Positions 8,018 through 32,000 of a DNA stretch of 32,000 nucleotides are shown here, piece by piece (position 1 is the stretch's first letter; every line of letters starts with the position of its first letter). Origin of the DNA: Rhodobacter capsulatus SB 1003 (lineage in GTDB: Bacteria; Pseudomonadota; Alphaproteobacteria; Rhodobacterales; Rhodobacteraceae). Location: contig NC_014034.1 of the NCBI RefSeq assembly GCF_000021865.1, forward strand, positions 3,030,001 through 3,062,000, given 5' to 3'. Both the position numbers and the translations under genes were made by a program. Under the pieces are notes generated by a model. That model was not told where the DNA came from. It searched no databases and saw nothing but the letters and a program-made list of their open reading frames with translations.

Positions 8018-8039
8018 GATCCGCCCGAAACCTGGGGAC

Positions 8040-10634: not shown

Positions 10635-10648
10635 TTGATCGGGATCAA
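10635..10648. promoter_or_regulatory. Perfect FNR/FnrL box TTGAT-CGGG-ATCAA upstream of dorS
   Basis: An exact match to the TTGAT-N4-ATCAA consensus. Its centre lies about 148 bp upstream of the proposed dorS ATG and about 110 bp upstream of the TPP aptamer on the other strand. Confidence 0.6.
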
Positions 10649-10749
10649 AGGCCCCGCTCGCAGCCGCGACAGGAGCGGCAATCCGCGCGGCCGCGGCGGA
10701 AACATCCTGTCCCCGGCCACTGGACAAGCCCCGCCATCCGTGCTTCCCT

Positions 10750-10840
10750 GCCCTTGCGACAGGGGCGTCCGGGCATCCGGGCTGAGAAGCACCCTTTGAA
10801 CCTGAACCAGATCATGCTGGCGTAGGGAGTCCGCAACCGG
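10750..10840 (+). promoter_or_regulatory. TPP (THI-box) riboswitch aptamer
   Basis: Canonical elements are present in order: GGGGCG, a CCGG-GCAT-CCGG hairpin, CTGAGA, ACCCTTTGAACCTGA, a CCAG-ATCAT-GCTGG hairpin, and CGTAGGGA. P1 closes with TTGCGAC (10754-10760) and GTCCGCAA (10829-10836). It lies directly 5' of thiM. Confidence 0.88.
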
Positions 10841-10867
10841 TGTCGGACCCAGCGTCCGCCCGGCTTC

Positions 10868-10891
10868 GGTCTTCCGCGTCATGGGAGGACC
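10868..10891 (+). promoter_or_regulatory. Shine-Dalgarno-sequestering hairpin (riboswitch expression platform)
   Basis: GGTCTTCC (10868-10875) pairs with GGAGGACC (10884-10891) through 7 Watson-Crick pairs and 1 G-U. This buries the GGGAGGA Shine-Dalgarno of the thiM ATG at 10893. The CTTCC segment could alternatively pair with the aptamer GGGAG (10825-10829). Confidence 0.45.
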
Positions 10892-10892
10892 G

Positions 10893-11699
10893 ATGACCGA
10901 AACCGGATCGTTCGCAGCTGTGGGACAGCCGCTTGCGCAGATGCGGGCCACTGCGCCGCTTGTGCACAACATCACCAATTTCGTCGCGATGAACGTGATG
11001 GCGAATGTGCAGCTGGCCGTTGGGGCCTCGCCCGCGATGCTGCATGCTTTGCCCGAGGTGGCGGAATTTGCCGCGCTCTGCGGCGCGCTGACGGTGAATA
11101 TCGGCACGGCGGATGCCGACTGGGCCGAAGGCATGGTGCAGGCGGCGCGGATGATGCACCGGCTGAACCGGCCCTGGGTGCTCGATCCGGTCGGCATCGG
11201 CGCGACGCAGTTCCGCAAGGATCTCTGCGCTAGGCTGCTCGATCTGCGCCCGACGGTGATCCGCGCCAATGCCTCGGAGATCCTGGCGCTGGCGGGGCTG
11301 GGCGGGCAGGCGCATGGCGTCGATGCGCGCGACACGGTCGCGGCGGCCGAGGTGGCGGCGGCGCAACTGGCCGCGCGGACGGGCGGCGTCGTCGCGGTCT
11401 CGGGGCCCGTCGATTACGTCACCGACGGGAGCCGCGCCTTCCGCATCGGCAATGGCCATGCGCTGATGCCGCAGGTGACGGCGCTCGGCTGTTCGCTCAA
11501 CGGGGTGATCGGCGCCTTTCTGGTCGGGCAAAAGCCGCTTGAGGCCACGGTGGCGGCGCTGGCCTATTACGGTCTGGCGGGCGAGATCGCCGCAAGGGAG
11601 GCCAAGGGCCCGGGCAGTTTCGCCGTGGCCTTCCTTGACGCGCTGGCCAATCTGACGCCCGAGGCGCTGAGTGCCGGGGCAAAGGTGCGCGCGGCATGA
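10893..11699 (+). CDS. thiM: Hydroxyethylthiazole kinase ThiM
   Basis: The ThiM signature is present (PLVHNITNFVAMNVMANVQLAVGASPAM...). I prefer the second ATG (10893) because GGGAGGA lies 4-10 nt upstream. The track ORF starts at 10881. Confidence 0.9.
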   Translation: MTETGSFAAVGQPLAQMRATAPLVHNITNFVAMNVMANVQLAVGASPAMLHALPEVAEFAALCGALTVNIGTADADWAEGMVQAARMMHRLNRPWVLDPVGIGATQFRKDLCARLLDLRPTVIRANASEILALAGLGGQAHGVDARDTVAAAEVAAAQLAARTGGVVAVSGPVDYVTDGSRAFRIGNGHALMPQVTALGCSLNGVIGAFLVGQKPLEATVAALAYYGLAGEIAAREAKGPGSFAVAFLDALANLTPEALSAGAKVRAA

Positions 11700-12307
11700 T
11701 CGGGCCCGTCTATGTCATCACCGACCCGGGGGCGGCGCTTTCCGTGCCCGATCAGGCCCGGGCCGCGGCCCGCGGCGGCGCCCGCGCGGTGCAGTTGCGC
11801 GACAAGACCGCCTCCGATGCAGATCTGCTGGCGCTCGCCCGGCAGCTGTTGCCCGAGATGCGGGCGCATGGGGTGAAGCTCTTCCTGAATGACCGGATCG
11901 AAGTGGCCATCGCCGCCGGGGCGGACGGGCTGCATATCGGGCAGGGCGACGGCGACCCCGTTGCCATCCGCGCCCGGATCGGGGCGGGGATGCTGCTGGG
12001 GCTCTCGATCGAGACCGAGGCGCAGGCCAGCCGCCTTCCCGGCTGCGTCGATTACATCGGCGCGGGGCCGGTGCGGGCGACGGCGACGAAACCCGATGCC
12101 GCCGCGCCCATAGGCTTTGACGGGCTGGCCCGGATCGCCCGGCTGGTCGCGGTGCCGACGCTCGCCATCGGCGGGCTGACCCGGGCCGACATTCCGGCGC
12201 TGAAAGCCGCGGGCGTGGCCGGGATGGCCGTCGTTTCCGCCGTCACCCGCGCCCCCGACGCCGAAGCCGCCTGCCGGGCACTCGTGCAGGACTGGAGGCC
12301 GCGATGA
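11696..12307 (+). CDS. thiE: Thiamine-phosphate synthase ThiE
   Basis: 203 aa. TMP-TENI family pattern (VYVITD..., VQLRDK, GADGLHIGQGD, IGAGPV..T.TK, AIGG). ATGA overlap with thiM. Confidence 0.9.
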   Translation: MIGPVYVITDPGAALSVPDQARAAARGGARAVQLRDKTASDADLLALARQLLPEMRAHGVKLFLNDRIEVAIAAGADGLHIGQGDGDPVAIRARIGAGMLLGLSIETEAQASRLPGCVDYIGAGPVRATATKPDAAAPIGFDGLARIARLVAVPTLAIGGLTRADIPALKAAGVAGMAVVSAVTRAPDAEAACRALVQDWRPR

Positions 12308-13101
12308 TCCCCAACATTCTGTCGATTGCCGGCTCCGACCCCTCGGGCGGGGCGGGGATTCAGGCCGATCTGAAAGCGATTTCCGCCAATGGCGGCTATG
12401 CGATGGCGGCGCTGACCGCGCTGACGGCGCAAAACACCCGCGGCGTCACCGCCGTCGATCCGATCCGCCCCGCGATGGTCACGGCGCAGATCGCCGCGAT
12501 CCGGGCCGATATCCGCATCGATGCGGTGAAAATCGGGATGCTGGGCGACAGCGCGATCATCGCCGCCGTGGCCGCCGCGCTCGAGGGGCTTTCGGCCCCC
12601 CTCGTCCTTGATCCGGTGATGGTGGCCAAGGGCGGCGACCGGCTTCTGGCGATGGATGCCGTCACCGCCCTGCGCCAGATCCTGCTGCCCCGCGCCGCGG
12701 TGATCACCCCGAACCTGCCCGAAGCGGCCGATCTTCTGGGCTGCGCCGTGGCGCAAGGCCGGGCCGAGATGGTCGCGCAGGCCCGCGGGCTTCGGGTGCT
12801 GGGCGCGCGGGCGGTCTATCTCAAGGGCGGGCATCTGCCCGGGGCCATCTGCCCCGATCTGCTGCTCGATGCCGCGGGCGAGGTCTGGTTCGAGGCGCCG
12901 CGGGTCGAGACGAAAAACACCCATGGCACCGGCTGCACCCTGTCTTCGGCCTGGGCGACGCAGCTGGCCCGCATCCCCGATCTGCGCCAGGCCGCCGCCG
13001 CCGCCCGCGCCTATACGCTGCGCGCCATCGCCGCGGCCGACCGGCTTTCGGTCGGACAAGGCCATGGCCCGCTGGATCATTTCTTTTCGATGAGGTCGTA
13101 A
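12304..13101 (+). CDS. thiD: Hydroxymethylpyrimidine/phosphomethylpyrimidine kinase ThiD
   Basis: 265 aa. The N-terminus is typical of ThiD (ILSIAGSDPSGGAGIQADLKA) and a GTGCTLSSA motif is present. ATGA overlap with thiE. Confidence 0.92.
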   Translation: MIPNILSIAGSDPSGGAGIQADLKAISANGGYAMAALTALTAQNTRGVTAVDPIRPAMVTAQIAAIRADIRIDAVKIGMLGDSAIIAAVAAALEGLSAPLVLDPVMVAKGGDRLLAMDAVTALRQILLPRAAVITPNLPEAADLLGCAVAQGRAEMVAQARGLRVLGARAVYLKGGHLPGAICPDLLLDAAGEVWFEAPRVETKNTHGTGCTLSSAWATQLARIPDLRQAAAAARAYTLRAIAAADRLSVGQGHGPLDHFFSMRS

Positions 13102-13102
13102 G

Positions 13103-14026
13103 ATGAAACCGCTTCTGCTTGCCCTTTTGCTGCTGGCCCCCCGGGCCGAGGCCGCCGAGAGCCTCTCGGTCATGCTCGATTGGTTCGTGAACCCCGATCA
13201 CGGGCCGATCATCGTCGCCGCCGAGCGCGGCTATTTCACCGAGGCCGGGCTGGACGTGACGCTGATCCCGCCCGCCGACCCGTCCGACCCGCCGAAGATG
13301 GCCGCCGCCGGGCAGGTCGATCTGGCGGTCAGCTACCAGCCGCAGCTGTATCTTCAGCATGCCGCGGGGCTGGGCCTGAAACGGGTCGGAACGCTGATCA
13401 ATGCGCCGCTTTACTGCGTCATGGCCGATGCGGCGGGGCCGGTGCACACCATGGCCGATCTGCGCGGTCGCAAGGTCGGCTATTCGCTGGCGGGGATCGA
13501 GGCGGCGCTGATGCAGCGGATGCTGCGCCACAACGGCGTCGATCCCGCCGAGGTCGAGACGATCAACGTCAATTTCGCGCTGACCCCCGCGGTGGCGACG
13601 GGGCAGGTCGCGGCGGTCTCGGGGGCGTTTCGGAACTTCGAGCTGCATCAGATGGCGGCCGTCGGCCATCAGGGCCGCTGCTTCCTGCCCGAGGAAAACG
13701 GCGTGCCCGCCTATGACGAGCTGATCTATCTGGCCCGCGCCGATCTGGCGCATGATGACCGCATCGCCCGGTTTCTGGCCGCGACCGGCCGCGCCGCCGC
13801 CGAGATCGCCGCCGATCCGCAGGCGGGCTGGGACACGTTCCGCGCCCATGCGGCGGAACTGGATGACCCGCTGAACGCCAAGGCCTGGCCCGACACCTGG
13901 CCGCATTTCGCCCGCGATCCGGCGGCGCTGGATACAGCGCGCTACCGCGATTTCGGCGCCTTCCTGGTGGAAACCGGGCTGATTCCGACCGCCCCGCCGG
14001 TGGAGACGATCGCGGTGGGCAAATGA
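13103..14026 (+). CDS. thiY: Periplasmic NMT1/THI5-like substrate-binding protein of a pyrimidine-precursor ABC importer (ThiY-type)
   Basis: 307 aa with a signal peptide (MKPLLLALLLLAPRAEA). The NMT1/THI5-like start (LSVMLDWFVNPDHGPIIVA.ERGYF) is present. It starts 1 nt after the thiD stop. The symbol follows the thiXYZ naming and is assigned from context. Confidence 0.75.
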   Translation: MKPLLLALLLLAPRAEAAESLSVMLDWFVNPDHGPIIVAAERGYFTEAGLDVTLIPPADPSDPPKMAAAGQVDLAVSYQPQLYLQHAAGLGLKRVGTLINAPLYCVMADAAGPVHTMADLRGRKVGYSLAGIEAALMQRMLRHNGVDPAEVETINVNFALTPAVATGQVAAVSGAFRNFELHQMAAVGHQGRCFLPEENGVPAYDELIYLARADLAHDDRIARFLAATGRAAAEIAADPQAGWDTFRAHAAELDDPLNAKAWPDTWPHFARDPAALDTARYRDFGAFLVETGLIPTAPPVETIAVGK

Positions 14027-14712
14027 CCGTTGCGATCGCGGGTCAGGTCTGGCTGGGCGGGCGCCCGCTTGTCGCCGCGCTTGATCTGCGGCTGACCCCC
14101 GGCTGGACCTGCCTTCTGGGGGCCTCCGGCGCCGGGAAGTCGACGCTTTTGCGGCTTTTGGCCGGGCTGCCCGTCGCGGCCCGGCTGGAGGGCACCCGGC
14201 AGGCGCCCGACCGCATCGGCTGGATGGCGCAGGCCGATCTGTTGCAGCCGCGGCTCTCGGTTCTGGGCAATCTGCGGCTGATGGCGCGGCTGCGCGGCGA
14301 GCCCCTGCCCCGCCCCCGGGCCGAGGCTTTGCTGGAGGCCGTCGGGCTGGCGGGCCGCGGTGCCGACCGGCCCGAGGCGCTGTCGGGCGGCGAGCGGCAG
14401 CGCCTTGCGCTGGCCCGGGTGCTGGCCGATGATGCCGCGCTTGTGGCGCTCGATGAACCCTTTTCCGCGCTTGATGTCCCCACCCGCGCCGCGATGCAGG
14501 ATCTGGCGGCGGCCTGTCTTGCGGGCAAGACCGTGGTGATGGTGACCCATGATCCGACCGAGGCTCTGCGGCTGGGCGACCGGGTGTTGCTGCTGCAAGA
14601 CGCCCTGCTGCACGAGATCCCGCCCCTGCCCGGGCCGCGTCCGGTGCCGCTTTCCGATCCGGGGCTGGCGCAGGCGGCGGCGGCGCTTCTGGCGCGGATG
14701 CGGCGGCCATGA
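14023..14712 (+). CDS. thiZ: ABC transporter ATP-binding protein (ThiZ-type)
   Basis: Walker A GASGAGKST, ABC signature LSGGERQR, Walker B LVALDEPFSALD. ATGA overlap with thiY. Confidence 0.85.
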   Translation: MTVAIAGQVWLGGRPLVAALDLRLTPGWTCLLGASGAGKSTLLRLLAGLPVAARLEGTRQAPDRIGWMAQADLLQPRLSVLGNLRLMARLRGEPLPRPRAEALLEAVGLAGRGADRPEALSGGERQRLALARVLADDAALVALDEPFSALDVPTRAAMQDLAAACLAGKTVVMVTHDPTEALRLGDRVLLLQDALLHEIPPLPGPRPVPLSDPGLAQAAAALLARMRRP

Positions 14713-17020: not shown

Positions 17021-20000
17021 ATGTCCCTGACTGCCACGCCGCTCATCGCCCTGCTTGCCGCCTGCCCCGGCGCCGCTTTCGTCGTCTCGCGTCCGGGGCG
17101 GATTCTGGCCGCCAACGCCGAGGCCGACCGGGTCTTCGGCACGGCCCGGCCCGCCGTCGCGGGGACCGGGCTCTCCGGCCTGCGCCTGGCCGAGGTGATC
17201 CCCTGCGCGCTGGGACACCGGATCATGGCGGCGCTGCGACGCGACGGGGTCCGGGAGGCGACGCGGTTCCGGCTGGCGCTCGACCGGGTCGAGGGCAGCC
17301 CCCATGTCGTCGAGACGCTGGTCTGGCCCGCCACCGCCGAAACGACCGACGACACCGCGGCGCCTTGCGGGTCGGCGGGGCCGCTCTGGATCGTGCTGGT
17401 GCTTGACGTCGGCGCACAGGCCGCGGCGACGGGGGGCGGGCGGATCCTCTGCACCGGCCTTGCCGCGCTGCGCGCCACCGAGGAAGCCCGCCGCAAGGCC
17501 CGGGAAAGCGCGGAAATCCTGCGCATCTCGACCGAAAACAGCGATCTGGCGCCCTGGGTCCACCATCCCGGCCATGGCAGCGGCGAGCTGAGCCCGCATC
17601 TGGCGACGATGCTCGGCCGTCCGGCCAATCCGCCGCTGGATCTGGCCGCTCTGGCCGCGCTGATCCACCCCGAGGACAGCCTCCGGATGCGGCGGGCCTT
17701 CGTCGCGCTGACACGTGGGCGCAGCGACCGGTTCAGCCAGGACATGCGGCTGCGCCGCGCCGATGGCCAATGGGCCTGGTTCACCGCGCGCGGCTACCGG
17801 ATGCCGCAGACGACGCCCTGCCAGCCGGTGACCCTGTGCGGCAGCCTGACCGACATCAGCGCCCGCAAGGCCGACGAGGCGCTGGTGGCCCGGACCCTTG
17901 CCGAAGCGCTGCACGCGCGCAGCCGCGCCCAGCAACGCGAGGAAATGCTGCGCACCTCCGGGCTTTGCGCCGGGATCGGGCATTTCTGCGCCAGCCCGCT
18001 GCAGGGCGAGGCCTGGACCCCCGACGAGACCTATCGGCTGTTCGGCTTCGAGCCGGGCGAATTCGCCGCCACCGATGCGGGCTGGCGCAGCCTGATCCAT
18101 CCCGAGGATCTGCCCGCGGCGATCGCCGCGATGGAGGATCTGAAGGCCGGTAGCACGATGCTTTACGACCATGTCCACCGGCGCCAGCACAAGGACGGCA
18201 GCTATCACTGGTATCGCGCCGTCGCCCGCCGGGTCGAGCGCAGCGATCTGGGCCTGCCGCCGCTGGTCGCCGGGGCGCTGATCTGCGTCGATCAGGCCAA
18301 GGAAACCGAGATCCGGCTGGCCGATGCCGCCGATGCGGCGCGGCTGGCGCGCGAACGGCTCGACACCCTTGCCGACAATGCGCCGGGCGCGCTGTTCGAA
18401 TGCCGGATGGCGGCCTCGGGGCAGATGATGCTGCCCTATTTCAGCGCCCGGCTGCCCGATCTGGCCGGGGTCTCCGGCTCCGAGATCCTGTGCGACGCCT
18501 GCGTCGTCTTCCGCCATGTGCCGCCGCAGCAGATGACACGGCTGTTGCGCCGCGCGATGACCGCCCTGCGCAGCGGCGCCGCGATCGAGATGCGGCTGTC
18601 GGTCCGCCATCCGCTGCGCGGCCTGCGCTGGGTCAGCGTCGCCGCCGCGCCCTTCCGCCGCGAGGATGCCTCGGTGTGCTGGTTCGGCCAGATCCTCGAC
18701 GTCACCGAGAATGTCGAAACCGAAGCCCGGGCGGCGCTGGCCGCCGAGGCGGCGCTGAAAGCCCATGCCCGGCTCGCCTCGATCGCCGCGGTCGCCCCGG
18801 CCGGGCTTTACGAGATCGAGCGGTTCCCCGAGGGGGCGGCCACGATCCCCTATGCCAGCCCGCATTTCCGCAATCTGCTGGGCCTTGATCACCGCGACAC
18901 GATCCGGCTGGGCGAGGGCGGCGGCGGCGCGCAGGAAGTCAAGCTGGACGACCTGCCCGCCTTCCTGACCCGGGATGCGGCCTCTCCGGTGCCGCCCGGC
19001 GGCGTGGCGCGGCGGTTCTGCATCCAGCATCCGCTGCGCGGCGCGGTCTGGCTGTCGAATTCGGCGACGGCCAAGCCGCAGCCCGATGGCACCGTGGTCT
19101 GGACCGGGGCGCTGCACGATGTCACCGGCGATGTCCGCCGCGAGGCCGAGCTGCATGCCGCCTATCGTCTGGCCGAGGACCGGCGGCAGGAAAACGAATG
19201 GCAGGCGCTGCATGACGGGCTGACCGGGCTGCCGAACCGGCGCTATTACGATCAGGTGCTGGCGAACCGGATCGAACAGGCGAAGGCGGGGGGCAAGTCG
19301 GGCTGCACGCTGATCCGCATCGATCTGGACCATTTCAAGCATGTGAACGACACGCTGGGCCATGATGCGGGCGATCTGGTGCTGTGCCGCGTCGCCGAGG
19401 TGCTGCGCGCCAGCCTGCGTCAGGGCGATTTCGCCGCCCGTCTTGGCGGCGACGAATTCTCGGTGATCCTGGCGCGCGGGCTGGGCCGCGAGGATGCCGG
19501 GGCGCTGATCCGGCGGGTTCAGGACCGGCTCGTCGAGCCGCTGATGTTCGCCGGGCGGCAATGCCGTTTCGGCGCCTCTTTCGGCATCGCCGAGGCCGAG
19601 GATCTGGCCAGCACCGGCCCCGAGATCCAGTTCTTCGCCGATGCCGCGCTGTATCGGGCCAAGGAAACCGGCCGCAACCGGATGGAATTCTTCACCCCCG
19701 AGCTGCATCAGAACCTGCGCCGCGACCGCGAACTGGCCGCCGAGATCCAGGAGGGGCTCGACCGCGACGAATTCGAACCGTTCTTTCAGGCGCAGGTTTC
19801 GGCCCGCGATCACCGTCTGACCGGGGTCGAGACGCTGCTGCGCTGGCGCCATCCCGAACGCGGCCTGCTGACGCCCCACGCCTTCATGCATGTGGCCGAA
19901 CAGCTGCGTCTGGTGCCCGAGATCGACCGCGTGGTGATGGAACGGTCGCGCGAATCGCTGGCCTTCTGGCGCGAGCGCGGGCTGATCGTGCCGAAGATCA

Positions 20001-20497
20001 GCTTCAACGTCTCCTCGGGGCGGATGCACGATCCCGATGTGGTGAAGGCGGCGCAGACGATCGCACGCGGCGAGACGCGGGTGACCTTCGAGCTGCTCGA
20101 ATCGATCCTGGTCGAGGATGAAAGCGATCTCTTCCGCTTCCATCTCGACGCGATCCGCGAAGCGGGCATCGACATCGAGATCGACGATTTCGGCTCGGGC
20201 CATGCCTCGATCATCGGCTTGATGCAGATCGGCCCCTCGGCGCTGAAGATCGACCGCCGCATCGTCGAGCCGCTGGGCCGCGATCCGCAGGCCCGCCATC
20301 TGGTGCGCGCGATCATCGAAATCGCCGAGACGCTGGGCACCGCCACCGTGGCCGAGGGCGTCGAAACCGAGGCCCAGGCCGAGATCCTGCGCGATCTGGG
20401 CTGCGACGTGCTGCAGGGCTTCCTGTTCTCGGTGCCACTCTCGGCGCCCGATTTCGTCGCGTTCTGGCAGCGCCACCGCAAGCGGCTGCCCGCCTGA
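17021..20497 (+). CDS. Multi-PAS/PAC diguanylate cyclase / phosphodiesterase (GGDEF-EAL)
   Basis: 1158 aa with four to five PAS/PAC-like units. GGDEF lies at 19445-19459, with an RxxD I-site (RQGD, 19418-19429) at the canonical spacing. The EAL domain has ETL at 19829-19837 plus DDFGSG, KIDRR, AEGVET and QGF. Confidence 0.93.
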   Translation: MSLTATPLIALLAACPGAAFVVSRPGRILAANAEADRVFGTARPAVAGTGLSGLRLAEVIPCALGHRIMAALRRDGVREATRFRLALDRVEGSPHVVETLVWPATAETTDDTAAPCGSAGPLWIVLVLDVGAQAAATGGGRILCTGLAALRATEEARRKARESAEILRISTENSDLAPWVHHPGHGSGELSPHLATMLGRPANPPLDLAALAALIHPEDSLRMRRAFVALTRGRSDRFSQDMRLRRADGQWAWFTARGYRMPQTTPCQPVTLCGSLTDISARKADEALVARTLAEALHARSRAQQREEMLRTSGLCAGIGHFCASPLQGEAWTPDETYRLFGFEPGEFAATDAGWRSLIHPEDLPAAIAAMEDLKAGSTMLYDHVHRRQHKDGSYHWYRAVARRVERSDLGLPPLVAGALICVDQAKETEIRLADAADAARLARERLDTLADNAPGALFECRMAASGQMMLPYFSARLPDLAGVSGSEILCDACVVFRHVPPQQMTRLLRRAMTALRSGAAIEMRLSVRHPLRGLRWVSVAAAPFRREDASVCWFGQILDVTENVETEARAALAAEAALKAHARLASIAAVAPAGLYEIERFPEGAATIPYASPHFRNLLGLDHRDTIRLGEGGGGAQEVKLDDLPAFLTRDAASPVPPGGVARRFCIQHPLRGAVWLSNSATAKPQPDGTVVWTGALHDVTGDVRREAELHAAYRLAEDRRQENEWQALHDGLTGLPNRRYYDQVLANRIEQAKAGGKSGCTLIRIDLDHFKHVNDTLGHDAGDLVLCRVAEVLRASLRQGDFAARLGGDEFSVILARGLGREDAGALIRRVQDRLVEPLMFAGRQCRFGASFGIAEAEDLASTGPEIQFFADAALYRAKETGRNRMEFFTPELHQNLRRDRELAAEIQEGLDRDEFEPFFQAQVSARDHRLTGVETLLRWRHPERGLLTPHAFMHVAEQLRLVPEIDRVVMERSRESLAFWRERGLIVPKISFNVSSGRMHDPDVVKAAQTIARGETRVTFELLESILVEDESDLFRFHLDAIREAGIDIEIDDFGSGHASIIGLMQIGPSALKIDRRIVEPLGRDPQARHLVRAIIEIAETLGTATVAEGVETEAQAEILRDLGCDVLQGFLFSVPLSAPDFVAFWQRHRKRLPA

Positions 20498-21173: not shown

Positions 21174-23144
<1,971 letters not shown>

Positions 23145-23378: not shown

Positions 23379-23687
23379 ATGCAAGACACGATGCTGGAAC
23401 GCATCGCCAGGAGCCCGGCCTACCACGCGCTGAAGACAAAGCGCTTGCGGTTCGGCTGGCTGCTCACCATCGCGATGCTGCTGGTCTATTACGGCTTCAT
23501 CACCGTCATCGCCTTTCGCAAGGACCTTCTGGCCGTGCCGATGGGCGAGGGGGTGATGACCTGGGGGATCCCGGTCGGCTTCGGGGTGATCCTGTTCACC
23601 ATCGTGGTGACGGCGATCTACGTCTTCCGCGCCAACAGCGACTATGACGAGCTGACCGCCCAGGTGAAGCGCGAGGTGCTGAAATGA
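23379..23687 (+). CDS. yjcH: DUF485 inner-membrane protein (YjcH-like), partner of ActP
   Basis: 102 aa with two TM helices. Shine-Dalgarno GAGGAGGA lies 7 nt upstream. ATGA overlap with actP, the same arrangement as E. coli acs-yjcH-actP. Confidence 0.85.
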
Positions 23688-25420
23688 GCCCGGTCACGAC
23701 CTTCACCCGCCTTGCGGCGGTCTCGGCGCTGAGCCTGACGCCCGGCCTTGCCCTTGCGGCGGGCGCGATCGAGGGGGCGGTGCAAAAGCAGCCCACGAAC
23801 TGGACCGCGATCGCGATGTTCGGCTTTTTCGTGGTGGCGACGCTGTTCATCACGAAATGGGCGGCCGGGCGGACGAAATCGGCGGCCGATTTCTACACCG
23901 CGGGCGGCGGCATCACCGGCTTTCAGAACGGGCTGGCGATCGCGGGCGATTACATGTCGGCGGCGTCCTTTCTGGGGATTTCGGCGGCGGTGATGCTGCA
24001 GGGCTATGACGGGCTGATCTATTCGATCGGCTTTCTGGTCGGCTGGCCGATCCTGACCTTCCTGATGGCCGAGCGGCTGCGCAACCTTGGCAAGTTCACC
24101 TTCGCCGATGTGGCGGCCTTCCCGTTCGCGCAGACGCCGGTGCGGGTCTTTGCGGCGATGTCGACGCTGGTCGTCGTGGCCTTTTACCTGATCGCCCAGA
24201 TGGTGGGCGCGGGGCAGCTGATCAAGCTGCTGTTCGGGCTGGAATATCTTTATGCGGTGATCGTCGTCGGCATCCTGATGATGGTCTATGTGCTGTTTGG
24301 CGGCATGACCGCGACGACCTGGGTGCAGATCATCAAGGCCTGTCTGCTGCTGGGCGGGGCCAGCTTCATGGCGCTGATGGTGATGGTGCATTACGGCTTC
24401 AGCCTGGAAAGCCTGTTTGCGGACTCGGTCAAGGTGAAGACCGATCTGGCGCTGGCGGCGGGCAAGACCCCCGAGGAGGCGGCGGCTGCGGGGATCTCGA
24501 TCATGGGGCCGGGCACCTTCGTGAAAGACCCGATCTCGGCGATTTCCTTCGGCATGGCGCTGATGTTCGGCACCGCCGGTCTGCCGCATATCCTGATGCG
24601 CTTCTTCACCGTGCCTTCGGCCAAGGAAGCGCGCAAGTCGGTGATGTGGGCGACGGTCTGGATCGGCTATTTCTACATGCTGACCTTCATCATCGGCTTT
24701 GGCGCCATCGTCTATGTCCTGACCAACCCGGGTCTGGTCAGCTATGATGCCAAGGGCGCGCTGACGCTGGTGGGCGGCAACAACATGGCGGCGATCCATC
24801 TGGCGCAGGCGGTGGGCGGCAACATCTTCCTCGGCTTCATCTCGGCGGTGGCCTTTGCCACGATCCTGGCCGTGGTCGCCGGTCTGACGCTCTCGGGCGC
24901 CTCGGCGGTGTCGCATGACCTTTATTCGACCGTGTTCAAGAACGGCAAGGCCGACAGCGCCTCGGAGCTGCGGGTCTCGCGCATCACCACGATCTGCCTT
25001 GGCATCGTCGCGGTGGTTCTGGGTCTGGCGTTTGAAAAGCAGAACATCGCCTTCATGGTGTCGCTGGCCTTTGCCATCGCCGCTTCGGCGAACTTCCCGG
25101 TGCTCTTCATGTCGCTTCTGTGGAAGGGCATGACGACGCGCGGCGCGGTGATCGGCGGTTCCCTCGGGCTGATCAGCTCGGTGGCGCTGACCGTGATCTC
25201 GCCCTCGGTCTGGGAGGCCACGCTCGGCTTTGAAAAGGGCTCGGCGCCCTTCCCCTATACCTCGCCCGCGCTCTTCTCGATGGTGCTGGGCTTTGCGGGG
25301 ATCTGGCTCTTTTCGATCACCGACAAGAGCCGGCGCGGCGATCAGGACCGGGACGGCTATCTGGCGCAGGAGATCCGTTCGGAAACCGGCATCGGCGCCG
25401 CCGAAGCCTCGGCGCATTGA
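23684..25420 (+). CDS. actP: Cation/acetate symporter ActP (SSS family)
   Basis: 578 aa, collinear with E. coli ActP from the N-terminus (..[16 protein letters not shown]...[32 protein letters not shown]..). Confidence 0.93.
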
Positions 25421-25490: not shown

Positions 25491-27317
25491 ATGGAACCCG
25501 ACCGTCAGGCCGTCCTTGCCTTTCTGGAAACCGTCCATCCCTATGATACCCTGCCGCGTGACGAGCTGGCCGAGGTGGCCCGTTCCTTTCGCCGCATGGA
25601 ATTTTGCGCCCAGGCGCTGATCTATGTGCATCAGACGCCCCTGGGCGGGCTTTACCTGATCAAGCAGGGCGCGGTGGAAATCACCGACGGCAATGGCGGG
25701 CTGGTCTCGCTTCTGGGTCCGCGCAATTCCTTTGGCGAGCGCGGTCTTCTGCGCGACGGGCTGGCCGCGACCCAGGCGCGGGCGACGGCGCAGACGGTCT
25801 GCCTTGTGCTGCCCACCCCCAGCTTCAAGCGGCTGATCGAGACCTATCCGGCGTTCGAGCGCTTCTTCAACAGGAAGCGCGGCGAGAAGGTCTCGACCGA
25901 GATCGCGACGCAGAAAGTGGCCGATCTGATCGCGCGCAAGCCGCTTGCCTGCGCGCCCGACACCCCCGCGATCGCGGCGGCGCAGCAGATGCGCGCGGCG
26001 CATGTTTCCTCGCTCGGCGTCGTCGCGGCGGACGGGACGCTTTTGGGCATCGTCACCCAGCGCGATCTGTCGAACAAGATCCTGGCCGAGGGGCAAGCGC
26101 CCGAAACCCCGGTGGCGGCGGTGATGACGGCGGATCCGGTCAGCCTGCCGCCCACCGCGCTCGGCTCCGACATCCTGCATATCATGCTGGAGCGGCGCAT
26201 CGGCCATCTGCCGATCACCGAGGCGGGGCGTTTCGTCGGCATGATCACCCAGACCGATCTGACGCGGTTTCAGGCGGTCTCGGCGGCGGTGCTCATTCGC
26301 GACGTGGTCTCGGCCGAGACCCTGGCCGAGATGGCCGCGGTCACCGCGCGGATCCCGCAGCTGCTGGTGCAGCTTGTCGGCGCGCATCACGCCCATGACG
26401 TGGTGACGCGGCTGATCACCGACATCGCCGATGCGGTGACGCGCAGGCTTCTGGTGATGGCCGAACGCGATCTCGGGCCGCCGCCGGTGCCCTATCTCTG
26501 GCTCGCCTGCGGCTCTCAGGGGCGGCAGGAACAGACTGGCGTGTCCGATCAGGACAATTGCCTGATTTTGGATGATGCGGCAAAGCCCGAAGACATGGAG
26601 TATTTCCGCGCTTTGGCGAAGATCGTCTGCGACGGGCTTGACGCCTGCGGTTACGTGCATTGCCCGGGCGAGATGATGGCCACGGCCGCGCGCTGGTGCC
26701 AGCCGCTCGGGGTCTGGCGGCGCTATTTCCACGACTGGATCGACACGCCGAACCCCGAGGCGCAGATGCTGGCCTCGGTGATGTTCGATCTGCGCCCGAT
26801 CGGCGGCACTGGCGCCGATCTCTTCACCGCGCTGCAGGAAGAAACCCTGCGGCTGGCGGCGCAAAGCCCGATCTTCATCGCGCATATGCTGGGCAATGCG
26901 CTCAAGCACACGCCGCCTCTGGGCCTCTTGCGCGGCTTTGCCACGATCCGCTCGGGCGAGCACCGCAACCACATCGATCTGAAGATGAACGGGGTGGTGC
27001 CGGTGATCGATCTGGCGCGGGTGCAGGCGCTGCGCGGGCGGCTTGGTCTCGCCAATACCCGCGCCCGGCTGAAGGCCGCCGAGGAGGCCGGGACGATCGC
27101 CCCCGGCGAGGCGCGCGATCTGATCGAGGCCTATGACCTGATCGCGACGACGCGGCTGGAAAACCAGGCCCGGCTGATCCGCTCCGGGCGGGCGCCGGAC
27201 AATTTCCTCGCGCCCTCGGATCTGAGCGATTTCGAACGCGCGCATCTGCGCGACGCTTTCGTGGTGGTGCGCACGATGCAATCGGCGCTGGGTCATGGCA
27301 AGGCCGTGGTGGGCTGA
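25491..27317 (+). CDS. cNMP-binding / tandem CBS / DUF294-type putative nucleotidyltransferase
   Basis: The product is 608 aa when started at MEPDRQAVLAF (ATG 25491), with AGGAGAG 4 nt upstream. Domains seen: a CAP-type effector domain (SFGERGLL...ARATAQ), two CBS repeats (..SSLGVVAADGTLLGIVTQRDL.. and ..IGHLPITEAGRFVGMITQTDL..), a nucleotidyltransferase core (LACGSQGRQEQTGVSDQDN) and a helical DUF294_C-like tail. The track start at 25230 overlaps actP. Confidence 0.85.
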   Translation: MEPDRQAVLAFLETVHPYDTLPRDELAEVARSFRRMEFCAQALIYVHQTPLGGLYLIKQGAVEITDGNGGLVSLLGPRNSFGERGLLRDGLAATQARATAQTVCLVLPTPSFKRLIETYPAFERFFNRKRGEKVSTEIATQKVADLIARKPLACAPDTPAIAAAQQMRAAHVSSLGVVAADGTLLGIVTQRDLSNKILAEGQAPETPVAAVMTADPVSLPPTALGSDILHIMLERRIGHLPITEAGRFVGMITQTDLTRFQAVSAAVLIRDVVSAETLAEMAAVTARIPQLLVQLVGAHHAHDVVTRLITDIADAVTRRLLVMAERDLGPPPVPYLWLACGSQGRQEQTGVSDQDNCLILDDAAKPEDMEYFRALAKIVCDGLDACGYVHCPGEMMATAARWCQPLGVWRRYFHDWIDTPNPEAQMLASVMFDLRPIGGTGADLFTALQEETLRLAAQSPIFIAHMLGNALKHTPPLGLLRGFATIRSGEHRNHIDLKMNGVVPVIDLARVQALRGRLGLANTRARLKAAEEAGTIAPGEARDLIEAYDLIATTRLENQARLIRSGRAPDNFLAPSDLSDFERAHLRDAFVVVRTMQSALGHGKAVVG

Positions 27318-27372
27318 CATGCAGCGGGCGGAGAGGCGGCGGGCAGAGATGGCCCCCGCGCGGGAGGACGGA

Positions 27373-27768
27373 ATGACCGGGGAAAGCGGCGGCAGGCCGC
27401 GCGTGCTGATCGTCGAGGACGAGGACAACATCGCCATTGCGCTTGATTATCTTCTGGGCCGCGAGGGGCTGGATCATGCGCGGCTGGCCACCGGGCTGGG
27501 CGCGGTCGAGCGCATCCGCGCCGAGCGCCCCGATCTGGTGCTGCTCGACGTGATGCTGCCCGAGGTCTCGGGCTACGAGATCTGCCAGCAGGTCCGGGCC
27601 GATGGCGCGCTGGCCGGGGTGCGGATCGTGATGATGACGGCGCGCGGCTCGGCGCTGGAGCGGCGCAAGGCGCTGGCGCTTGGCGCCGACGGGTTCATCG
27701 CCAAACCCTTCGAGCTGAAGGAGCTGCGCGACGAATTGCACCGGCTGCTGGACCCGGAGGGGGCGTGA
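27373..27768 (+). CDS. Stand-alone CheY-like receiver protein
   Basis: 131 aa when started at MTGESGG (ATG 27373), with GGGAGGA 4 nt upstream. The phospho-pocket is complete: VEDED, LVLLDVMLP, MMTARG and IAKPF. There is no output domain. Its stop overlaps the start of the next gene (GTGATG at 27765-27770). Confidence 0.85.
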   Translation: MTGESGGRPRVLIVEDEDNIAIALDYLLGREGLDHARLATGLGAVERIRAERPDLVLLDVMLPEVSGYEICQQVRADGALAGVRIVMMTARGSALERRKALALGADGFIAKPFELKELRDELHRLLDPEGA

Positions 27769-29882
27769 TGGGGCTGGCCCGGCTCAGCCTGCGCCTCCGG
27801 ATCTTCCTGTTCTTCGCCGCGCTGGCGATGGGCAATCTTGCGGCGCTGGTCGCGGGGCTGGTCTTCGGCTTTCACAAGCTCGCCCGGCCCGAGGCGCTTT
27901 CGGGCTTCGTGATCGGCGGCACCGTGGCGGGGCTGGTCATCCTGGGCCTGATCGGGGTGGTCTGGGCGCTGTTCGACGCCAATCTGGCGCGGCCGATCGA
28001 GCGGCTGGCGGGCTCGATCCGGGCGCGCACCCAGACCGCGGTCGACAGCGCGCTGGATGAAAGCGCGGGGCGCTATCTGGGCGATCTGGCCCCGGCGGCG
28101 GCGGCGATCGCGCAGCATCTGAACGAGACCCGCTCGGCGCTGACCGAGGCGGTGCAGCGCGAGACCACCCGGCTTGCCCGCGAAAAGGACCGGCTGGAGA
28201 CGCTGCTGTCGGACGTGCCGGTGGGGGTGCTTTTGTGCACCGCCGATCATGCCCTGGTCTTTTACAACGGTCAGGCGGTCGATCTGCTGGGCGGGGCGCA
28301 TGCGCCGGGGCTCGACCGGCGGGTCTTCGACTATCTGCACCCGGCGCCGATCCGCCATGCCCATGCGCGGCTTCTGGCGACGGCCGATCCCGATGCCGCC
28401 TCGGATCTTCTGTGCGCGACGGTGGCCGATGGCCGCACGCTCGCCGCGCGGATGCGGCTGATCTCGGAGGGGGAGGATCATCAGGTGCGGCGCCTGGCGG
28501 GCTATGTGCTGACCTTGCGCGATGTCTCGGCCGATCTGCGCGCCCATGCCGGGCGCGAGGCGCTGATGGACGAGCTGTTCGACCGCATCCGCCGTCCGGC
28601 CGCGGCGCTGCAATCGCTGATGGGCGTGCTGATCGCCGAGGACGGGCCCGCCGATCCGCAGGCCCGCGCGCAGCTGCGCGAGGCCGCCCGGGCCGAGGCG
28701 GGCCATCTTGCGCAGGCGATCCACAGCCTGCACGACCGCCACGAGGCGATGCGGGCCGACTGGTGGCCGCTTGCGATGATCCGCGCCTCGGATTTCGGCG
28801 CCGCCGTGCAGGCCCGCGTCGCGGCCGAGGGGGCGGGCGATCTGCTGCCGGTGACCGCGGCCCTGCTGCTGCGGCTGGAGGGCTTCGAGATGGTGGCGCT
28901 GATCGCGCATCTGGTGCGCCGTCTGGGCCCGGGCCGGGCCGAGAAGCGGCTGGAGGTGCTTGAAGACGGCGCGGGGGCGCTGATCGCGCTCGAATGGCGC
29001 GGCGCGGCGGTGGCGATTGCCGATCTGGAGCTGTGGCTCTCCGAGCCGCTGGATGTGGGCCAGGCCGAGGTGACCGGGCGGCGGGTGCTCTCGGTCCATG
29101 CGACCGATCTGTGGCCCGAGCGGCTGCACGAGGGGCGGCACCGGCTCTGCCTGCCGCTGCGCGAGGCACGCCGGATCGGCCCGGATCCCCATCCGGTGCC
29201 CCGTCCGGTGCCGCGCCAGGTGGTCTATGACTTTGATCTGCTGGGGCGGGGCGGCGAAAGCGCGCTGGCCGAAACCCCGCTCGACAAGCTGACCTTCGTC
29301 GTCTTCGACACCGAGACGACGGGGCTCTTTCCCACCGGCGGCGACGAGATCGTGCAGATCGCGGCGGTGCGGATCGTCAACGGGCGGCGGGTGGCGGGCG
29401 AGGTCTTTGACACGCTCGTGAACCCGGGGCGGCCGATCCCGGCGGCCTCGACGGCGGTTCACGGCATCACCGAGGCGATGGTGGCAACCGCGCCCGCGAT
29501 CGCCGAGGTCGGGCGGCGGTTCCACAAATTCGCCGAGGGCGCGGTGCTGGTCGCCCATAACGCGCCCTTCGATCTGGAATTCCTGCGCCGCAAGGAATTG
29601 CTGATCGGCAAGAATTTCGACAATCCGGTGCTCGACACGGTGCTTTTGTCGGCGGTGGTCTTCGGCGCCGCCGAGGGCCACAGCCTGGACGCGCTGACGC
29701 ATCGGCTGGGCATCACCATCCCCGAGGAAGCCCGCCACACCGCGCTTGGCGACACGGTCGCCACGGCCGAGGCCTTCCTGCGCCTGCTGCCCGCCCTCAA
29801 GGCCCGCGGCCTGACCACCTTCGGCGCCGTCCTCACCGAAGTCCGAAAACACCGCCGCCTCATGCGCGACATGAACGCCTGA
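27765..29882 (+). CDS. Membrane HAMP-PAS pseudo-histidine-kinase fused to a DEDDh (DnaQ/RNase T-like) 3'-5' exonuclease
   Basis: 705 aa. Two TM helices are separated by an 11-aa loop, followed by a HAMP-like linker and a PAS domain. The DHp-like helix reads ELFDRIRRPAAAL, with Asp273 (28581-28583) where SHELRTPL has the phospho-His. The CA-like domain shows no N, G1 or G2 boxes. The C-terminal exonuclease carries ExoI FVVFDTETTG, ExoII LVAHNAPFDLEFL and ExoIII HTALGD. The start is either GTG 27765 or ATG 27768. Confidence 0.85.
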   Translation: MMGLARLSLRLRIFLFFAALAMGNLAALVAGLVFGFHKLARPEALSGFVIGGTVAGLVILGLIGVVWALFDANLARPIERLAGSIRARTQTAVDSALDESAGRYLGDLAPAAAAIAQHLNETRSALTEAVQRETTRLAREKDRLETLLSDVPVGVLLCTADHALVFYNGQAVDLLGGAHAPGLDRRVFDYLHPAPIRHAHARLLATADPDAASDLLCATVADGRTLAARMRLISEGEDHQVRRLAGYVLTLRDVSADLRAHAGREALMDELFDRIRRPAAALQSLMGVLIAEDGPADPQARAQLREAARAEAGHLAQAIHSLHDRHEAMRADWWPLAMIRASDFGAAVQARVAAEGAGDLLPVTAALLLRLEGFEMVALIAHLVRRLGPGRAEKRLEVLEDGAGALIALEWRGAAVAIADLELWLSEPLDVGQAEVTGRRVLSVHATDLWPERLHEGRHRLCLPLREARRIGPDPHPVPRPVPRQVVYDFDLLGRGGESALAETPLDKLTFVVFDTETTGLFPTGGDEIVQIAAVRIVNGRRVAGEVFDTLVNPGRPIPAASTAVHGITEAMVATAPAIAEVGRRFHKFAEGAVLVAHNAPFDLEFLRRKELLIGKNFDNPVLDTVLLSAVVFGAAEGHSLDALTHRLGITIPEEARHTALGDTVATAEAFLRLLPALKARGLTTFGAVLTEVRKHRRLMRDMNA

Positions 29883-29892
29883 AACGGGGCGC

Positions 29893-30681
29893 TCAGAAGG
29901 CGGTCAGCCCCCGGGCGCGAAACACCGCCCGCGCCGCCTCGGTCGCTTCGGGCGCGGGCGTCGGGGTGTCGGCCAGCGCATAGGGATGGCCAAGCATCGC
30001 CCATTTCGAGGCGCCAAGCTGATGGAAGGGCAGCACCTCGACCAGCTCGACCGCGGGACCCAGCCGCGCGACGTGATCGGCCATGCGGGCGATATCCTCG
30101 GGCGCGTCGGTCCAGCCGGGCACCAGCACGTAGCGAATGCGCATCTTTTTCCCCAGCCGCACCATCCGGTCGGCGCAATCGAGCGTCGGCTGCAAGGGCT
30201 GCGCCGTCAGCGCCAGATGCCGCGCCGGGTCGATGTGCTTGATGTCGAGCATCACGAGGTCGATCGGATCGAACCAGTCGTCGGTCACGCGATCATGCAG
30301 ATGGCCCTGCGTATCCAGCGCGACATGCAGCCCGAAGCGGTCCTTCAGTGCCCGGGCGGTGGCGTGGACAAAGGCCGCCTGCATCATCGGCTCGCCGCCC
30401 GAAAAGGTCACCCCGCCCGCGAATTTGAGGAAACTGGCCAAGGGCGCAACCTCGGCCACGAGATCCTCGACCGCCACCCGGCGGCCTGCATGCAGTTTCC
30501 AGGTGTCGGGGTTGTGGCAGTAAAGGCAGCGGAACTGGCAGCCCGACAGGAAAAACACGAAGCGCATCCCCGGCCCGTCGACCGCCGCCCCGGATTCGAG
30601 CGAATGCAGGAAACCGTGACAGGCGGCCTCGTGCGGATCGCAGACAGCGTCAAACCCGGGATGCGGCGTCAGGATCGTCAT
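29893..30681 (-). CDS. pflA: Pyruvate formate-lyase activating enzyme (radical SAM)
   Basis: 262 aa. CQFRCLYCHNPDTW radical-SAM cluster motif and a GVTFSGGEP motif. It lies immediately downstream of pflB. Confidence 0.92.
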   Translation of the reverse strand: MTILTPHPGFDAVCDPHEAACHGFLHSLESGAAVDGPGMRFVFFLSGCQFRCLYCHNPDTWKLHAGRRVAVEDLVAEVAPLASFLKFAGGVTFSGGEPMMQAAFVHATARALKDRFGLHVALDTQGHLHDRVTDDWFDPIDLVMLDIKHIDPARHLALTAQPLQPTLDCADRMVRLGKKMRIRYVLVPGWTDAPEDIARMADHVARLGPAVELVEVLPFHQLGASKWAMLGHPYALADTPTPAPEATEAARAVFRARGLTAF

Positions 30682-30687
30682 CGCGGC

Positions 30688-32000
30688 TCACAGGCTGGCG
30701 TGGAAGGTGCGGCTGATCACGTCAAGCTGCTGCGCCCGCGTCAGCTTGACGAAATTCACCGCATAGCCCGAGACGCGCACGGTCAGCTGCGGATAGGCCT
30801 CGGGGTGGTGCATCGCATCTTCCAGCATCTCGCGGGTCAGCATGTTGACGTTGACGTGAAAGCCCCCTGCCCCGCAGAAGCCGTCCAGACAATTGGCCAG
30901 GTTCGTCACCTGCTCGGCCTCGGTATGGCCCATCGAGCCGGGGGTGGCCGAGGCCGTCCAGGACACGCCATCAAGCGCGGCATCGTAAGGCAGTTTCGCG
31001 ACCGAGGCGCCCGCCGCCACGAAGCCCTTCTTGTCGCGCCCGTTCATCGGGTTGGCGCCGGGCGCAAAGGGTTCGCCCGCGCGGCGGCCATCGGGGGTGT
31101 TGCCGGTCTTCTTGCCGTAAACCACATTCGAGGTGATCGTCAGGATCGACTGCGTCGGCATGGCGTTGCGGTAGAAATGCGGCTGCGCGGCGATCTTGGC
31201 CATGAAGGCCTCGGTCACGGCGACGGCGATTTCGTCCACCCGGTCATCGTTGTTGCCAAAGGCCGGATAGTCGCCCTCGATCGCGTAATCGACGGCAAGA
31301 CCGGCGTCGTTGCGGATGACCCGAACCTTGGCATGCTTGATCGCCGAGAGGCTGTCGGCGACGATCGAGAGCCCCGCAATCCCCGTCGCCATCGTGCGCA
31401 GGATATCGCGGTCATGCAGCGCCATCTCGATCCGTTCATAGGCGTATTTGTCATGCATGTAGTGGATCGCGTTCAGCGCCTTGACATAAGTCCGCGCCAG
31501 CCAGTCCATCGCCAGATCGAATTTGGCCCGCACCTCGTCATAGTCGAGCACATCCGCGGTGATCGGGCTCAGCCCCCTGGCCACCAGCGCCCCCGACTTT
31601 TCATCGACGCCGCCGTTGATCGCGTAAAGCAGCGCCTTGGCCAGGTTTGCCCGCGCGCCAAAGAACTGCATCTGCTTGCCGATCCGCATTGCGGACACGC
31701 AGCAGGCGATGCCGTAATCGTCGCCCCATTTCGGCCGCATCAGATCGTCGTTTTCATATTGGATCGCCGAAGTATCCTTGGACACCTTGGCGCAGAAGGT
31801 CTTGAAGCCGCGCGGCAGGCCGACCGACCAGAGCACGGTCAGGTTCGGCTCGGGCGCCGGGCCAAGGTTGTAAAGCGTCTGCAGCACCCGGAACGAGGTC
31901 TTCGTGACCAGCGTCCGGCCGTCTTCGCCCATGCCGCCGATGGCCTCGGTGACCCAGGTGGGATCGCCCGAGAAGAGCTCGTCATAATCCGGCGTGCGCA
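30688..32000 (-). CDS. pflB: Formate C-acetyltransferase (pyruvate formate-lyase) PflB; 5' end outside the window
   Basis: The C-terminus carries the glycyl-radical motif ([28 protein letters not shown]). The frame stays open beyond the track start at 31932 (..[33 protein letters not shown]..) and is collinear with E. coli PflB. Confidence 0.93.

Follow-up and report, generated by a model that had tools for sequence, protein, structure and literature searches.

We describe here a gene in a stretch of 32,000 nucleotides of the Rhodobacter capsulatus SB 1003 genome (RefSeq assembly GCF_000021865.1, contig NC_014034.1, positions 3,030,001 to 3,062,000 of the forward strand), which was analysed as a whole and is called the window hereafter. 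The predicted product is a membrane-anchored protein of 705 amino acids in which a pseudo-histidine-kinase is joined to a DEDDh-type exonuclease, and a sequence search returned a Rhodobacter capsulatus protein with 100% identity to it. An initial annotation made from the letters of the window had placed this protein at 28548-29804; the gene is a real one, but that span takes in only its middle and C-terminal parts. The gene is the last of six that are co-directional and tightly packed, in the order acs, a yjcH-like gene, actP, a gene for a DUF294 protein, a gene for a single-domain response-regulator receiver, and the pseudokinase-exonuclease gene itself. Its GTG start codon shares four nucleotides (GTGA) with the TGA stop codon of the receiver gene, and judging from this overlap the two genes are translationally coupled in the window. 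The receiver has kept its whole catalytic set, namely E41/D42, D85, T115 and K137 in the numbering of its open reading frame (ORF). Positions of all these features, and of the domains of the protein, are collected in Table 1.

The whole protein was modelled with AlphaFold2 (AF2) on an alignment of 118 sequences, giving a predicted local distance difference test score (pLDDT) of 92.2 and a predicted template modelling score (pTM) of 0.83. The model is composed of two transmembrane helices, a HAMP/signalling helix, a PAS domain (residues 154-253), a helical hairpin (255-290 and 298-333), an alpha/beta domain (337-470), a linker and the exonuclease. Only some 10 residues connect the two transmembrane helices, and a periplasmic sensor domain is absent from the protein. 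When the full model was compared with PDB structures by Foldseek, it matched full-length WalK over 472 columns (E-value 1.3e-14) and VicK over 420 columns, both being kinases of the HAMP-PAS-DHp-CA type, and further matches were found with LOV-kinase chimeras, ThkA, HK853 and DivL. Among 70 diverse representatives of the family, Pfam detected HAMP in 5 and PAS families in 45-57, and the Pfam PAS signal in the R. capsulatus protein itself is weak (residues 143-255). Within the PAS domain Cys158, Asn168, Gly182, Leu183 and Arg185 are near-invariant across the family, and because of this the conserved columns suggest that the domain binds a specific ligand or cofactor.

No Pfam or NCBIfam model covers residues 256-500, and no match to Pfam HisKA or HATPase_c was obtained for the protein even at an E-value threshold of 1; in the 70 representatives HisKA matched weakly and below threshold in 17, and HATPase_c in 3. 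A search of the PDB sequences with the single full-length sequence likewise returned exonuclease domains only and no kinase. Homology of the middle region to HisKA plus HATPase_c was nevertheless established with 22 diverse representatives, from which a profile of residues 256-470 was made. Searched against the sequences of solved structures, this profile matched DivL best (4q20, E-value 4.6e-9), which is itself a pseudokinase, followed by 9m08 (2e-8), ZraS (1.8e-7), VicK (1.4e-6) and the WalK-type kinase 4u7n; EnvZ, HK853, CpxA and KdpD were matched also, and the E-values of these four together with 9m08, ZraS and VicK span 2e-8 to 5e-3. These alignments extend through both DHp and CA, including the CA domains of ZraS, VicK and HK853. 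The use of diverse representatives, and not of close orthologues, accounts for the significance of these matches: a profile of close orthologues reached ZraS only at a non-significant E-value of 0.17, with Asp273 already placed on the phosphorylatable His. When residues 256-470 were modelled alone by AF2 (pLDDT 90.6), all of the top 50 Foldseek matches were DHp-CA cores of kinases, so that the comparison of a predicted structure with histidine-kinase folds, which had been proposed as a check in the initial annotation, came out in favour of a DHp hairpin followed by a CA domain of alpha/beta fold. The same region is similar to the DHp-CA part of a genuine SLC5-type kinase encoded next to many family members (BLAST E-values down to 8e-9), which is explained later.

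The alignments to solved kinases place residue 273 on the phospho-acceptor position, corresponding to the phosphorylated His of ZraS and to Tyr550 of DivL, because the register of the H-box is anchored by Arg276, equivalent to the Arg at H+3, and by Pro278, equivalent to the Pro at H+5. We then counted the family columns in 96 full-length representatives, the pairwise identity of which is no more than 50%. At column 273 there are 56 Glu, 19 Asp, 4 Gln and 4 Thr, with the remainder scattered and His in none, and 120 close orthologues have Asp (118) or Glu (3). The replacement of the phosphorylatable His by Asp273, as noticed at first from the single sequence, thus holds for the family, in which a non-His and predominantly acidic residue has been maintained at this position. 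The N, G1 and G2 boxes, which could not be recognized in the single sequence of the CA-length domain, are absent also from the aligned family columns: the N-box Asn positions carry His/Arg382 and Arg386, the Asp of G1 is replaced by Trp411 in 89 of the 96 representatives within a region reading Trp411-x-Gly413-x-Pro/Ala, and no glycine-rich G2 lid is present at the corresponding columns. In their place the CA-like domain has near-invariant residues of its own, i.e., Trp334-Pro335, Asp/Glu372, Trp411, Gly413, Trp424, His445 and Trp450. The DHp surface directly after the H-box (A280, N281, L282, R283, A284, A285, E287 and L289) is conserved family-wide.

We considered, on the basis of these columns, whether the protein might still be a working kinase or phosphatase, which would employ a non-canonical acceptor such as H261 or H445, a cryptic ATP site, or dephosphorylation of the receiver. 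H261 had been named at the outset as the residue on which the pseudokinase reading could fail; it is conserved in 116 of 121 close orthologues of Paracoccaceae, but the same column has His in only 16 of the 96 representatives, Leu being the commonest residue, and no other His-rich column exists in DHp. Because its conservation is confined to Paracoccaceae, we regard H261 as a feature of that clade and have rejected it as the alternative phospho-acceptor, so the pseudokinase reading survives this test. H445 is found in 90 of the 96 representatives, but it belongs to the CA-like domain and not to the DHp helix, and the position is often occupied by His in ordinary kinases. The weak HATPase_c matches mentioned above could hint at a cryptic ATP site, but the N-box Asn, the G1 Asp and the G2 glycines have been replaced throughout the family. 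As to phosphatase activity, HisKA proteins require Thr or Asn at H+4 (the E/DxxT/N motif), and the family has Arg, Ala or Gln there. A working kinase or phosphatase is accordingly very improbable in our view.

The C-terminal domain is matched by Pfam RNase_T at residues 512-671 (E-value 3.5e-40; 138.7 bits against a cut-off of 24). The catalytic residues are D515/E517 of the Exo I motif (DxE), D603 of Exo II, and H658 with D663 of Exo III (Hx4D), each of which is conserved in at least 90% of the family, and the nuclease site is intact. That every DEDDh residue is kept had been recognized from the beginning, and D603, H658 and D663 were numbered correctly then; the first pair, which had been given as D514/E516, is D515/E517. 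The closest PDB sequence matches are the PolC exonuclease, epsilon and DinG, to the domains of which the exonuclease model fits with a root-mean-square deviation of about 2 A by Foldseek. Relatives carry the name 'DNA polymerase III subunit epsilon' in databases, and this name, together with the nearest solved structures, could be taken to mean that the protein is an epsilon-type proofreading or DNA-repair exonuclease which merely bears sensor domains. We find this hardly credible. Scores against the dnaQ models of NCBIfam are far under their cut-offs (113.4 against 222.7 bits for TIGR01406, and 109.8 against 196 bits for PRK05711), and the protein scored below the cut-off of every NCBIfam model tried and belongs to no curated equivalog; it has a membrane anchor; only 34 residues follow the RNase_T match before the C-terminus, with no long polymerase-binding segment such as epsilon has; and the gene is located in an acs-actP-DUF294 operon, away from replication genes. 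A PADLOC scan returned generic DEDDh matches only, and we thus see no sign of a defence system.

Table 1. Features of the operon and of the pseudokinase-exonuclease gene (window positions; aa, amino acids; TM, transmembrane)
Feature	Position	Strand	Basis or remark
Acetyl-CoA synthetase (acs)	21174..23144	+	Pfam ACAS_N, AMP-binding, AMP-binding_C; ORF open from 20982, likely start ATG 21174
Small two-TM protein in the YjcH position, overlapping the actP start	23379..23687	+	Assigned by position and length only
ActP-like sodium:solute symporter	23684..25420	+	Pfam SSF, E-value 2e-111
cNMP-binding, two CBS, DUF294 and DUF294_C domains; GlnD/GlnE-like nucleotidyltransferase	25491..27317	+	Pfam
Single-domain response-regulator receiver	27295..27768	+	Pfam Response_reg, E-value 2.2e-25; likely start ATG 27373, 131 aa
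Whole gene, membrane-anchored pseudo-histidine-kinase and DEDDh exonuclease	27765..29882	+	ORF list; 705 aa
Two TM helices (about aa 12-35 and 47-68) with a loop of about 10 residues	27789..27968	+	Hydrophobic segments in the sequence; AF2 helices 9-39 and 42-90
HAMP-like segment and long signalling helix into PAS	27969..28211	+	AF2 helices to residue 149; Foldseek
Cytoplasmic PAS domain (aa 150-254)	28212..28526	+	Weak Pfam PAS matches; conserved columns
DHp-like helical hairpin (255-290, 298-333) with the motif ELFDRIRRPAA	28527..28763	+	Profile matches to solved kinases; AF2
Asp273 codon at the phospho-acceptor His position	28581..28583	+	Aligned to ZraS His and DivL Tyr550
CA-like (HATPase_c-fold) alpha/beta domain lacking N, G1 and G2 boxes	28764..29174	+	Column statistics, profile alignments, Foldseek
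Linker from CA-like domain to exonuclease	29175..29291	+	Conserved columns 484-492
Family signature of the linker	29214-29240	+	RQVVYDFDL here; RPEFYDFDL in most lineages
DEDDh 3'-5' exonuclease domain	29292..29879	+	Pfam RNase_T, PDB sequence matches, Foldseek
pflA (pyruvate formate-lyase activating enzyme) and C-terminal part of pflB	29893-31932	-	Converging on the operon end

As for the other genes of the operon, Shine-Dalgarno-like sequences are present at the likely ATG starts 21174, 25491 and 27373, and the longest ORFs begin at 20982, 25230 and 27295, respectively; the coordinates of the longest ORFs therefore overstate the acs, DUF294 and receiver genes, because the likely starts lie well downstream. 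No Rfam match was found within or close to the operon. The pfl genes at its end may be metabolic neighbours of the operon, as a link between pyruvate, acetyl-CoA and acetate. Just upstream of acs a PAS-PAS-GGDEF-EAL protein of 1158 amino acids is encoded (17021-20497, forward strand). Farther upstream a thiamine pyrophosphate (TPP) riboswitch (Rfam RF00059, 63.5 bits; 10751-10846, forward strand) precedes thiM-, thiE- and thiD-like genes (10881-13101), and genes for an NMT1/THI5-like binding protein and an ATP-binding cassette (ABC) ATPase (13103-14712) are also downstream of it. A cluster of the dimethyl sulfoxide/trimethylamine N-oxide (DMSO/TMAO) reductase type occupies 2640-10727 on the reverse strand and is unrelated to the pseudokinase-exonuclease; its members include a molybdopterin oxidoreductase (2640-5111), a multihaem cytochrome of the NapC/NirT type (5734-7008) and, at 8040-10727 on the reverse strand, a hybrid kinase whose domains are PAS, HisKA, HATPase_c, REC and Hpt. 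This hybrid kinase is the only kinase in the window and is unrelated to the SLC5-type kinase described below.

The extent of the family was examined by searching the close-orthologue profile against 1.84 billion representative proteins, which gave 539 clusters (at 50% identity) at an E-value threshold of 1e-3 and 299 at 1e-10; the best 150 matches are mostly of about 700 amino acids and are aligned at the same position. When a profile of the 70 diverse members was searched against the large protein database, most of the matches were Paracoccaceae proteins that had been obtained before. We also scanned one genome per species for the linker pattern RPE[FY]YDFD, which leaves out the Paracoccaceae variant (VVYDFDL), and found at least 600 matched stretches, according to which at least 566 species genomes encode a relative. 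Members of the family occur in Alpha-, Beta- and Gammaproteobacteria, with a few in Actinomycetota; among the matches listed are those from Rhodospirillales, Kiloniellales, Hyphomicrobiaceae, Stappia, Thiodiazotropha, Competibacteraceae, Rhodoferax, Zoogloea, Dechloromonas, and a few metagenome-assembled genomes (MAGs) of Actinomycetota and Gemmatimonadales.

Eighty loci were fetched for counting the neighbouring genes, 73 of which have enough flank for judging the receiver and 47 of which are longer than 14 kb. In 59 of the 73 loci the next gene upstream, in the same orientation, encodes a receiver; a DUF294 nucleotidyltransferase is encoded in 40, and an ActP-like transporter in 29, of the 47 long loci. 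Of 70 REC matches obtained in the loci by tblastn, none lacks the phospho-acceptor Asp, the Lys or the Thr/Ser, and nearly all have the acidic pair; helix alpha-1 of the receiver shows strong conservation among the 61 adjacent copies. The operon of Rhodobacter xanthinilyticus (locus L081, 4252-9609) has the same gene order as that of the window. That locus has in addition an adenylate kinase gene after acs, a gene for a DUF4212 protein before the SSF transporter, and an ORF of 175 amino acids without a Pfam match between the DUF294 and receiver genes, none of which is present in the window. In one representative (P0167, 1154 amino acids), PAS, pseudo-kinase and exonuclease are fused to CBS-DUF294-DUF294_C in one chain, and this fusion, as far as it can be read from the sequence, supports a functional link of the two enzymes; because it is a single representative, it could be a frameshift or a gene-calling artefact. 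Three Hyphomicrobiaceae loci (L041, 4835-6916; L042, 9462-11537; L043, 9509-11581) carry a second, stand-alone exonuclease gene and a DUF294 gene directly after the fused gene; the stand-alone exonuclease is 32-35% identical to the fused domain, and unfused and fused versions thus share one locus.

In 53 of the 80 loci a genuine histidine kinase of about 910 amino acids (54-84% identity) is encoded next to the receiver and pseudokinase-exonuclease genes, for example at L072, 3927-6680, and at L080, 4058-6778. It has HisKA and HATPase_c domains (E-values 1e-18 to 1e-30) and no receiver domain, and its multi-pass N-terminus, which has a faint similarity to ActP, matches the solved 'histidine kinase' 10ed_A (E-value 3e-69); relatives are named 'Na+/proline symporter/signal transduction histidine kinase' in databases. 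This SLC5-type kinase gene is situated just upstream of the receiver gene in Betaproteobacteria and Actinomycetota, and just downstream of the pseudokinase-exonuclease gene in Alpha- and Gammaproteobacteria. A search for it among named Rhodobacter and Paracoccaceae genomes found only one Rhodobacterales MAG.

On the basis of these results we propose, with somewhat more belief than doubt, that the protein is a DivL-like pseudokinase which docks the receiver and gates its own exonuclease within an acs-actP acetate module. The presumably dimeric membrane sensor would be constructed on a complete histidine-kinase chassis, comprising two transmembrane helices, HAMP, PAS, DHp and CA, and its dead DHp/CA core would be the module for docking and reading out the receiver encoded upstream, as DivL does with DivK~P. 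In most lineages the adjacent SLC5-type transporter-kinase would phosphorylate the receiver, and in R. capsulatus the phosphodonor may, speculatively, be a kinase encoded elsewhere or acetyl phosphate. The exonuclease would be turned on or off by the receiver as it binds or is released, jointly with the PAS input, and the RPEFYDFDL-type linker would transmit the signal. The exonuclease and the DUF294 enzyme, the latter being regulated through its cyclic nucleotide (cNMP)-binding and CBS domains, may share one substrate, for instance the 3' end of an RNA, or else a signal or adduct that carries a nucleotide; as a pair they would tune the assimilation of acetate and short-chain carboxylates via acs and actP. 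The conserved DHp surface at 280-289 and the conserved helix alpha-1 of the receiver fit a maintained interface, although such a fit is not a proof. The initial annotation had also interpreted the protein as a non-phosphorylating signalling dimer that controls a nuclease. This interpretation, which we share as an inference, has been strengthened by the coupled and intact receiver gene upstream and by the SLC5-type kinase nearby in most lineages, because an arrangement of a receiver with a real kinase is what is expected if the dead core serves as a docking and readout module. Because the family adjoins receiver, nucleotidyltransferase and acetate-uptake genes, it is probably a nuclease, instead of transcription, that is controlled here by a two-component signal.

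Several points weigh against this proposal and have to be mentioned together. The docking of the receiver is deduced from gene order, conservation and analogy, and the loss of ATP binding is deduced from motifs; what we propose on the sense of the control, on the substrate and on the role in physiology is of the same inferential kind. An acidic side chain facing the phospho-aspartate would be electrostatically unfavourable unless it is bridged by Mg2+. An Asp or Glu at this place suggests either such a bridge or a discrimination against the phosphorylated form, and therefore the partner could be the unphosphorylated receiver, with either sign of regulation. With its conserved Trp/His set, the CA-like domain might have a new pocket for a ligand, the input of which outweighs that of the receiver. 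Neither the window nor R. xanthinilyticus has an SLC5-type kinase within 8-10 kb (10 kb in R. xanthinilyticus), and none is encoded elsewhere in the window. Finally, the receiver gene is not directly upstream in 14 of the 73 loci, in two of which (L004 and L032) it is located just downstream.

These last two points, i.e., the Paracoccaceae operons without an adjacent kinase and the 14 loci without a receiver directly upstream, are also the ones that favour a scaffold in the strict sense, in which the dead core only dimerises and relays the PAS/HAMP signal, while the receiver acts on the DUF294 enzyme or serves as a phosphate sink of the SLC5-type kinase; the conservation of PAS, HAMP and the signalling helix, with the near-invariant Cys158, Asn168 and Arg185, is in harmony with it. 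We judge this explanation plausible but less likely than our proposal, because the receiver gene has the position next to the pseudokinase-exonuclease gene, in the same orientation, in 59 of the 73 loci and is translationally coupled in the window, because the surface of DHp helix-1 that follows the H-box, on which real kinases dock their receivers, has stayed among the best-conserved parts of the region despite the loss of phosphotransfer, and because a CA-like domain with invariant residues of its own would be needless for a pure scaffold.

DivL is one of the known systems closest to the family. The kinase core of DivL functions as an input domain sensing DivK~P (PMC4211667). DivL and the family both have a complete PAS-DHp-CA chassis, a residue other than His at the phospho-acceptor position and a single-domain receiver as a partner; of the PDB sequences, that of DivL is matched best by the family profile, and its structure too ranks among the top matches. 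They differ in that DivL has Tyr where the family has Asp/Glu, and in that DivL is without an enzymatic output and modulates the kinase CckA, whereas the family is fused to an exonuclease; further, the CA-like domain of the family is without any ATP-binding box, and the context is the cell cycle for DivL but acetate metabolism for the family. The ordinary kinases WalK/VicK, HK853, EnvZ and ZraS share with the family the domain order, the folds and the Arg (+3) and Pro (+5) of the H-box, whereas the family is without the acceptor His, the phosphatase Thr/Asn and the N, G1 and G2 boxes and has the C-terminal nuclease in addition. With DnaQ-like exonucleases (epsilon of DNA polymerase III, PolC, the N-terminal part of DinG, and RNase T) it shares the fold and the five catalytic residues, and it differs from them in being fused to a signalling chassis and in falling outside the curated equivalogs.

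A further known system is the unfused PP_0354/PP_0353 pair of Pseudomonas putida and its homologues (such as Pflu5625), in which a cNMP/CBS/DUF294 enzyme is likewise paired with a DEDDh exonuclease. There, too, a link to acs/actP exists, and an SLC5-type sensor kinase is associated with the pair, as it is in 53 of the 80 loci of the family (PMC9927547; PMC5715377; bioRxiv 10.64898/2026.09.07.749794). The SLC5-type MxtR/ErdR system has no stronger target than this pair, the deletion of which causes only mild defects on pyruvate and propionate, its function having been called unclear (PMC9927547; bioRxiv 10.64898/2026.09.07.749794; PMC5715377). In the window, too, the exonuclease gene is near genes for DUF294, acs and an SSF transporter, so it belongs to the acs/actP-linked DUF294 nucleotidyltransferase-exonuclease module. 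The Pseudomonas exonuclease is small and soluble, whereas the protein described here has an additional N-terminus of about 500 residues consisting of the membrane sensor and the pseudo-kinase. The Pseudomonas pair is under transcriptional control through the DNA-binding ErdR/CrbR (MxtR/ErdR corresponding to CrbS/CrbR), whereas the receiver partner here is without a DNA-binding domain, and post-translational control is therefore implied. DUF294_C has been classified with the GlnD/GlnE-like nucleotidyltransferases (PMC3710099), and because such an enzyme is paired with a 3'-5' exonuclease, the two activities are suggested to be an opposing write/erase pair acting on a 3' end or a nucleotide signal.

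All these elements can be joined in a single scheme: the SLC5-type transporter-kinase would sense a short-chain carboxylate and phosphorylate the receiver, the acidic 'pseudo-phospho-His' of the dead core would read the state of the receiver, and the exonuclease so gated would reverse what the DUF294 enzyme writes, making a reversible 3'-nucleotidylation or a nucleotide-signal switch on acetate assimilation in thousands of Proteobacteria. The scheme in its entirety is a tentative one, and we think that at least one of its parts is likely to be wrong.

Full-text searches gave no kinase-like chassis fused to an exonuclease, in accord with the statement of the initial annotation that it knew of no characterised protein of this architecture; nothing was found in the literature on DUF294 with exonuclease and acetate, or on pseudokinase with exonuclease and DHp, and in the fitness-annotation preprint of Price et al. 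only 'DUF2946' matched a search for DUF294. Each of the components, be it the pseudo-kinase, the DEDDh nuclease or the DUF294/exonuclease pair, was known already, and the family that unites them is large, coherent and mis-annotated, with thousands of entries named 'DNA polymerase III subunit epsilon' in databases. To our knowledge very few pseudo-histidine-kinases have been recognized so far, chief among them DivL; the family would be a large one of this kind, with an enzymatic output that is unprecedented. It can serve as a natural system for studying how a kinase chassis signals without phosphoryl chemistry, and it gives a handle on the DUF294/exonuclease pair, whose function resisted deletion analysis in Pseudomonas. 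If the proposal is true, a two-component pathway ends here in a nuclease and not in a transcription factor.

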